A stretch of DNA of 64,000 nucleotides from Escherichia coli (GTDB lineage: Bacteria > Pseudomonadota > Gammaproteobacteria > Enterobacterales > Enterobacteriaceae): assembly GCF_003334815.1 (NCBI RefSeq), contig NZ_QOWO01000008.1. One strand, given 5' to 3'. Below are positions 63,193 to 63,898 of the stretch, in pieces. Made by a program: the position numbers and the translations under genes. Position 1 is the first letter of the stretch; every line of letters starts with the position of its first letter. The notes under the pieces are model-generated. The model worked only from the letters and a program-made list of their open reading frames with translations, was not told the origin of the DNA and made no database searches.

Positions 63193-63213
63193 ATATGTTA
63201 CAATATAACATTA
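63193..63213. promoter_or_regulatory. Zur box in the zinT promoter
   Basis: ATGTTACAATATAACAT is near-palindromic and resembles the Zur consensus (GAAATGTTATANTATAACATTTC); overlaps the likely -10 region. Confidence 0.65.
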
Positions 63214-63247
63214 CACATCATATACAATGACTCTGGAGGAAACTGTT

Positions 63248-63898
63248 TTGGCGATTCGTCTTCACAAACTGGCTGTTGCTTTAGGTGTCTTTATGGTTAG
63301 CGCTCCTGCCTTTTCGCATGGTCATCACTCACACGGCAAACCCTTAACAGAGGTCGAACAAAAAGCTGCTAATGGTGTTTTTGATGATGCCAATGTACAA
63401 AACCGAAAGCTGAGTGACTGGGATGGAGTCTGGCAATCCGTTTATCCTTTACTGCAAAGTGGCAAACTTGACCCCGTCTTTCAGAAGAAAGCGGATGCAG
63501 ATAAAACTAAAACATTTGCTGAAATTAAAGATTATTATCACAAAGGTTATGCGACAGATATCGAGATGATTGGCATTGAGGACGGCATTGTTGAATTCCA
63601 TAGAAATAATGAAACAACATCCTGTAAATATGATTACGATGGATACAAAATACTCACCTATAAATCAGGCAAGAAAGGCGTTCGTTACTTATTCGAATGT
63701 AAAGATCCTGAAAGCAAAGCCCCTAAATATATACAATTTAGCGATCATATAATTGCACCACGAAAATCATCTCATTTTCACATTTTTATGGGTAATGATT
63801 CACAGCAATCTTTATTAAATGAAATGGAAAACTGGCCAACGTATTATCCATATCAGTTGAGTAGCGAAGAAGTGGTCGAGGAAATGATGTCTCATTGA
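63248..63898 (+). CDS. zinT: Periplasmic zinc/cadmium-binding protein ZinT
   Basis: Track ORF starts at ATG 63227 ([14 protein letters not shown]...); TTG at 63248 follows a GGAGG Shine-Dalgarno and gives [14 protein letters not shown]... (216 aa, His-rich mature N-terminus HGHHSHG), the recalled ZinT start. Confidence 0.9.

Follow-up and report, generated by a model that had tools for sequence, protein, structure and literature searches.

At which codon does translation of zinT begin? The window, the whole stretch of 64,000 nucleotides of Escherichia coli DNA that we analysed, offers two candidates in one reading frame: an ATG at 63227 and a TTG at 63248, which sits 21 nt 3' of it. The list of open reading frames made for this DNA includes an entry at 63227..63898, with a product of 223 aa. 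The rule behind the list takes the first ATG, GTG or TTG after a stop as the start, and the 223-aa frame begins at ATG 63227 because that codon is the first to follow the TAA at 63206-63208, 21 nt upstream and in the same frame. The elements at issue are the following.

63206-63208, plus strand: in-frame TAA, within the Zur box and the -10 element; upstream limit of the zinT frame.
63227-63229, plus strand: in-frame ATG in the 5' leader, without a Shine-Dalgarno (SD) sequence; a polymorphic codon, most likely not a start.
63235-63239, plus strand: SD sequence GGAGG, 8 nt 5' of the TTG; duplex of -9.3 kcal/mol.
63248..63898, plus strand: zinT coding sequence, with a TTG start (63248-63250), a TGA stop (63896-63898) and a 216-aa preprotein.

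The original prediction had described an ATG at 63227 and, behind a GGAGG, an in-frame TTG at 63248, and all three are there. It had also argued that the ATG of the ORF track is too early a start. The ATG is most likely not the start, as proposed; its place in the ORF track is the product of a longest-ORF rule and not a competing annotation. We conclude, with a probability of about 0.93, that TTG 63248 is the zinT start and that the upstream ATG is a strain-variable codon of the untranslated leader. This start is already known: it agrees with RefSeq and with the standard K-12 annotation.

The capacity of each codon to attract a ribosome was scored as the best duplex between the 3' end of 16S rRNA and the 20 nt upstream of the start. 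TTG 63248 attains -9.3 kcal/mol, a strength matched at only 0.94% of the window positions sampled, and its GGAGG is well spaced, with a gap of 8 nt, just as had been claimed. The companion claim that the ATG lacks an SD sequence holds equally: the 20 nt before it (AACATTACACATCATATACA) give a duplex of +2.7 kcal/mol, that is, no favourable pairing. This lack applies whichever promoter is used. Predicted mRNA folding at the two starts provides no clear discrimination and counts as weak evidence. In a short transcript, the 15 nt 5' of the ATG are A/U-rich and predicted to be largely open, with P(unpaired) of 0.65-0.9, and for the ATG codon the prediction is one of pairing, with P(unpaired) of 0.01-0.26. 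In the predicted fold of a long transcript, the SD sequence is mostly paired (P(unpaired) 0.15-0.17), a weak and model-dependent value. A search of the zinT leader against Rfam detected no RNA element.

These values bear on dual initiation, the alternative that survives best. A minority of ribosomes would start at ATG 63227 without an SD sequence in strains that have the ATG allele, producing a precursor of 223 aa whose signal peptide has 30 residues; this precursor would be either processed to the same mature ZinT or exported less efficiently. In its favour, the ATG shares the reading frame of zinT, and as a start codon ATG is by nature stronger than TTG. The A/U-rich and, by prediction, mostly unpaired 15 nt upstream would suit such initiation, and the ATG allele is common and evidently tolerated, being present in 2441 genomes. 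On the other side stand the unfavourable anti-SD pairing, the predicted pairing of the ATG itself and three further features of the locus, which we take up below with the leader, the allele survey and the signal peptide. Taken as a whole, we judge dual initiation improbable. Slightly less probable again is its stronger form, in which the ATG acts as a second, SD-independent start in ~45% of E. coli and the 7-residue acidic extension measurably changes ZinT export under zinc starvation. If that were true, translation of a zinc-acquisition factor would differ between strains through a polymorphism at the upstream ATG.

Curated annotation favors the TTG. The zinT region (501 bp around the start) is 100% identical to that of E. 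coli strain 52F4, and the RefSeq zinT coding sequence of that strain begins at the base equivalent to window 63248. In K-12 MG1655 (NC_000913.3), the coding sequence spans 2041375..2042025 and starts at TTG. The TTG-equivalent start is also annotated in a K-12-type O16:H48 strain, CFT073, O157, ST131, L73, BL21 Star(DE3), and others. In a sample of 60 genomes, drawn evenly from the 2441 with the ATG allele, the ATG was covered by no annotated feature in any of the 60. Outside RefSeq, the zinT start is annotated inconsistently. The 223-aa (ATG) and 216-aa (TTG) forms of this exact ZinT each occur on at least 1000 contigs in public collections, and the representative of the 90% cluster is a 223-aa NCBI record (MQS64999.1). 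These 223-aa deposits reflect the output of gene callers and are not evidence of ATG use. The choice of start decides which of the two ZinT forms spreads in databases, as well as the numbering of ZinT residues. Short contigs from metagenome-assembled genomes labelled 'Bacillota bacterium' and 'uncultured Bacteroides sp.' encode parts of ZinT that match the E. coli protein of the window with 100% identity; these contigs are most likely mis-binned E. coli.

Variation within E. coli separates the two codons. In an alignment of 10 strains, GGAGG and TTG are invariant and the codon at 63227 is variable: it is ATG in the window, O157, L73, 2014C-3097, and F41; TTA in K-12, CFT073, ST131, and MMC-J-0091; and ATA in strain WG5. 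We counted alleles in 5426 complete E. coli genomes by megablast with 36-mer queries, where the exact word of 28 bases has to include the variable codon, such that each query reports one allele. The ATG allele is present in 2441 genomes (~45%), O157:H7 and BL21 included. The TTA allele, which is that of K-12 and CFT073, is present in at least 2812 (1400 of K-12 type and 1412 of B2 type). Thus, the ATG is missing from at least 52% of E. coli genomes. A 36-mer query for the ATA allele with K-12-type flanks matched no genome, and ATA was left out of the counts; this allele, seen in WG5, is rare in E. coli. The outgroup Escherichia sp. MOD1 has ATA at this codon, and since ATA and ATG are one substitution apart, the ATG allele probably derived from ATA by a single substitution. 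On the same comparison, ATG and TTA seem to have arisen from ATA independently, each by a change of one base.

A more direct argument comes from 8 genomes, obtained from different hosts and laboratories, in which the ATG is accompanied by a 1-nt insertion. The insertion is an extra A (GGAGGAAAAC) at the position homologous to window 63240-63242. In this allele, the spacing from SD to start is 9 nt and the ATG lies 22 nt before the start (as measured in CFS3273), out of frame. For F41 and CFS3273, the 2 of the 8 in which we inspected the annotation, zinT is a normal 651-nt coding sequence with an ordinary accession and no pseudogene flag. The insertion amounts to a frameshift experiment made by nature, and only a start 3' of the insertion is compatible with it. 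It also counts against dual initiation, as it shows the frame of the ATG to be dispensable. We infer that ATG 63227 is probably of little use as a start even in strains having the ATG allele.

A separate variant lies within the gene. ZinT residue 16 (window 63293-63295) is Met (ATG) here and Ile (ATT) in 9 other aligned E. coli strains; the Met16 codon is a further in-frame ATG without an SD sequence, located within the h-region of the signal peptide.

Other species extend the comparison. We scanned one genome per species, which provided 80 loci, 78 of them complete. For each locus, every in-frame start that follows the upstream stop and precedes the mature N-terminus was scored by anti-SD pairing. 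Across the 78 loci, 18-26 codons separate the start with the best SD from the His-rich mature N-terminus, and in 34 of them the distance is exactly 23 codons. The best-start codons are TTG in 31 loci, GTG in 7, and ATG in 40, and a start with an SD sequence 23 codons before the mature N-terminus is usually TTG. The position equivalent to that of E. coli is TTG in Escherichia sp., E. albertii, Salmonella enterica arizonae, Atlantibacter, Serratia, and Phytobacter, and likewise in Yokenella, Superficieibacter, Citrobacter freundii, Lelliottia, and others. A few species have GTG there, and more distant genera such as Buttiauxella, Proteus, Providencia, Morganella, and Yersinia have ATG. Just 3 of the 78 loci, two from Serratia and one from Atlantibacter, have an in-frame ATG 6-7 codons 5' of the best start; the anti-SD pairing of these ATGs, at +0.8 to -3.3 kcal/mol, is far weaker than that of the best start and not usable. 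In most of the 78 loci, an intervening stop codon means that no longer form of ZinT is possible.

Two of these species are informative about the leader itself. E. albertii and S. arizonae have a 5-nt deletion relative to E. coli between the Zur box and the SD sequence, and on either side of this indel the Zur-box core and the TTTTG at the start are conserved. Because the indel is not a multiple of three and its flanks are conserved, the interval 63209-63247 evolves, as judged from sequence, as a non-coding leader.

The idea that ATG 63227 is the true main start in this lineage, with a 223-aa preprotein and the TTG merely an internal Leu codon, can appeal to the longest ORF and to the 223-aa form in public collections, NCBI records such as MQS64999.1 among them, but it has no SD sequence whereas a near-perfect one serves the TTG, at least 52% of E. 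coli and the other species examined lack its codon, which is out of frame in 8 genomes, and RefSeq uses the TTG even in ATG-allele genomes, so that we consider it extremely unlikely. As a zinT start, ATG 63227 was thus rejected: it is without an SD sequence, polymorphic, and frameshifted in 8 genomes, and RefSeq places the start at the TTG.

Two further observations came from the survey of species. Across many genera, the zinT TTG start is found mostly in an ATT-TTG or GTT-TTG context. The keeping of a weak TTG start across genera, in a gene that Zur represses about 1000-fold, may reflect selection. In Serratia sp. DD3, the same zinT locus appears on four contigs with identical upstream sequence and match statistics, which suggests a duplicated or redundantly assembled region.

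Experimental data on initiation are available for K-12. In INRI-seq, a synthetic MG1655 transcriptome is translated in PURExpress and initiating ribosomes are arrested with retapamulin; each template consists of 30 nt of 5' UTR and 153 nt of ORF (PMC9825163). Table S2 of that study lists zinT (b1973) at start 2041375 with 41.9, 31.2, 34.3, 21.4, and 26.2 CPM, found in 5 of 5 replicates and scored TRUE (PMC9825163). In vitro, the TTG of K-12 is therefore able to support initiation, a result that applies to the K-12 allele, with TTA at the upstream codon. The same table gives an in vivo Ribo-RET value (Meydan et al.) of 0 for zinT (PMC9825163), which we attribute to Zur repression of the gene in the medium used. 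The supplements of TRAINSPOTTER do not contain zinT. As a small point of consistency, the RT-PCR primer that Gilston et al. named zinT18_up (PMC4219657) starts at position 18 when counted from the TTG. Overall, annotation, polymorphism, the frameshift allele, other species, the non-coding leader, and the retapamulin peak concur with the original prediction that zinT starts at the TTG.

The predicted zinT promoter bears on the length of the leader ahead of the ATG. The upstream features are as follows.

63025..63054, no strand assigned: REP-type imperfect palindrome in the msrQ-zinT spacer, GCCGGATGTGGCGC / GCGCCCTATCCGGC; 14-nt inverted arms, 86% complementary.
63085..63114, plus strand: putative upstream promoter TTGTCA-18-CACAAT, from a consensus scan; possible second promoter, ~100 nt 5' of the Zur box.
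63181..63209, plus strand: predicted Zur-repressed sigma-70 promoter; -35 TTGCAT (63181-63186), 17-nt spacer, -10 TATAAC (63204-63209).
63196..63215, no strand assigned: Zur operator (Zur box), an exact match to TGWNAYRWTATAWYRTNWCA; overlaps the promoter spacer and the -10.

The predicted sigma-70 promoter at 63181..63209 was read by eye from the sequence. It escaped the consensus scan for promoters, since its TATAAC ends in C and has no T at position 6. S. arizonae has the same promoter layout (TTGAAG-17-TATAAC). This arrangement would place the transcription start site (TSS) at ~63215-63217 and would leave a leader of ~31-33 nt before the TTG and of only ~10-12 nt before the ATG. For dual initiation, a TSS near 63216 is unfavorable, as only ~10 nt would precede the ATG: a leader of that length is too long to count as leaderless and too short to hold a standby site. 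Published TSS maps were consulted for zinT. The Cappable-seq supplement had no match to the gene or to nearby coordinates, the Mendoza-Vargas 2009 supplements had no match, and a full-text search of the literature gave nothing usable.

The scan did propose the second promoter at 63085..63114, and an RpoD SELEX promoter with the sequence TTGTCA-18-AATAAT has been reported in the yedZ>zinT spacer (Shimada 2014, PMC3946193). If the promoter at 63085-63114 is active, the Zur box would be a roadblock to it and not a case of promoter occlusion. Further upstream, and with no bearing on the choice of start, the palindrome at 63025-63054 has a sub-threshold match to Rfam naRNA4, with 33.7 bits against a gathering score of 59.5. 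naRNA4 is a REP-derived family.

The operator is well defined. Perfect 8-nt inverted arms (TGTTATAT/ATATAACA) at 63189-63196 and 63203-63210 form an A/T-rich palindrome, and the sequence TGWNAYRWTATAWYRTNWCA is found exactly at 63196-63215. This is its only match in the 64 kb, even with 1 mismatch allowed, where 0.01 would be expected by chance. TGWNAYRWTATAWYRTNWCA is the structure-based recognition pattern for two dimers of E. coli Zur (Gilston 2014, PMC4219657). An earlier consensus of 23 bp, GAAATGTTATA-N-TATAACATTTC (given in PMC4219657), was aligned by eye to 63192-63214 and fits at 19 of 23 positions. The distance from operator to ATG is 11 nt when measured from the 20-mer, 12 nt from the 23-bp box, and 16 nt from the perfect palindrome; the earlier figure of "about 14 nt" past the palindrome is close enough, given that it varies with the limits set for the operator. 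The box overlaps the predicted -10 TATAAC and the promoter spacer of a zinc-acquisition gene, and it is conserved in relatives: its core (ATGTTAnAnTATAACAT) is present in E. albertii and S. arizonae. The 20-mer of the window is identical to that of K-12, and operator differences from K-12 are confined to flanking bases. In K-12, the zinT operator has a Kd-app of 0.053e-18 M^2 and confers 984-fold repression in vivo (PMC4219657, Table 3); zinT is one of the four Zur operators characterised in that work.

Taken together, these elements suggest how ZinT would be made. The gene would be transcribed from a Zur-repressed promoter whose -10 lies within the Zur box at 63196-63215. The GGAGG at 63235-63239 would recruit ribosomes, and initiation would occur at TTG 63248. 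A 216-aa preprotein would result, and removal of a 23-residue signal peptide after AFS would release periplasmic ZinT beginning at HGHHSHG. ATG 63227 would then be no more than an in-frame codon of a short 5' leader.

The protein product is ZinT (YodA). It scores 432.2 bits against the NCBIfam equivalog NF007639, above the cut-off of 300, and thus belongs to the ZinT family. The match covers profile positions 2-214 of 214 and corresponds to residues 11-223 of the 223-aa form; the 7-residue extension is outside the family model. The structure 1s7d is matched with E = 1e-147 over residues 1-216, and 1oee and 5aq6 are also matched. The gene neighbours are msrP and msrQ, as in K-12. When the translation from the TTG is set beside K-12 NP_416482, it reproduces the N-terminus of ZinT, which bears out a further element of the original prediction.

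The start codon also shapes the predicted signal peptide, which for the TTG start is as follows.

63248..63316, plus strand: Sec-type signal peptide, 23 codons; mature protein from 63317 (HGHHSHG).

The features of this peptide were calculated by hand. Starting at the TTG, the n-region is MAIRLHK with a net charge of +2, and the signal peptide has 23 residues. Starting at the ATG, the extension (MTLEETV) adds two Glu, the net charge of the n-region is 0, and the signal peptide has 30 residues. The h-region (mean Kyte-Doolittle hydropathy 2.81) and the c-region (SAPAFS, with A at -3 and S at -1) are the same for both starts. The n-, h-, and c-regions and the mature N-terminus all fit a Sec/SPase I signal peptide, and the 193-aa PDB chains 1oee and 5aq6 start at residue 24, with HGHHSHG. 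For dual initiation, the n-region is a further difficulty, as an acidic n-region is atypical of a Sec signal peptide. Cleavage after AFS yields identical mature ZinT from either start.

The earlier suggestion that the choice of start affects signal-peptide prediction is therefore correct for the n-region and does not extend to the cleavage site, which is unchanged. Depending on the choice, the predicted signal peptide has 23 or 30 residues and its n-region a net charge of +2 or 0. Biologically, nothing changes: the mature periplasmic ZinT and its regulation by Zur are the same with either start. It also follows that ordinary N-terminal proteomics, which had been proposed as a check, cannot separate the two starts, because the signal peptide is cleaved and the mature N-terminus is identical.

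How does this locus compare with known systems? The closest counterpart is K-12 zinT (yodA, b1973; NP_416482.1; PDB 1oee/1s7d), which shares the msrP-msrQ-zinT neighbourhood, the TTG, the SD sequence, and the core of the Zur box. The 216-aa product of the window differs from K-12 ZinT at three positions (H6Y, M16I, and K54T). K-12 has TTA at the upstream codon and thus no competing ATG, whereas the window has the ATG allele, like O157:H7 and BL21. ZinT of BL21 Star(DE3) carries the same accession, WP_001007789.1, as that of strain 52F4, which is identical to the window. For ZinT of K-12 and of O157:H7, binding of zinc or cadmium and cooperation with ZnuA are known from work to which PMC4219657 and PMC3053223 refer. 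In its regulation, zinT resembles the znuA/znuCB, ykgM-L31p, and pliG promoters, where the Zur box likewise lies over the core promoter, and there is no difference in kind. As an annotation problem, the locus belongs with the N-terminal over-extensions produced by longest-ORF calling: here too, an in-frame upstream start without a ribosome binding site is chosen, and a conserved start that has one lies a few codons 3'. It departs from the usual over-extension in that the true start is the rarer TTG and the spurious one an ATG, which biases gene callers in the wrong direction.
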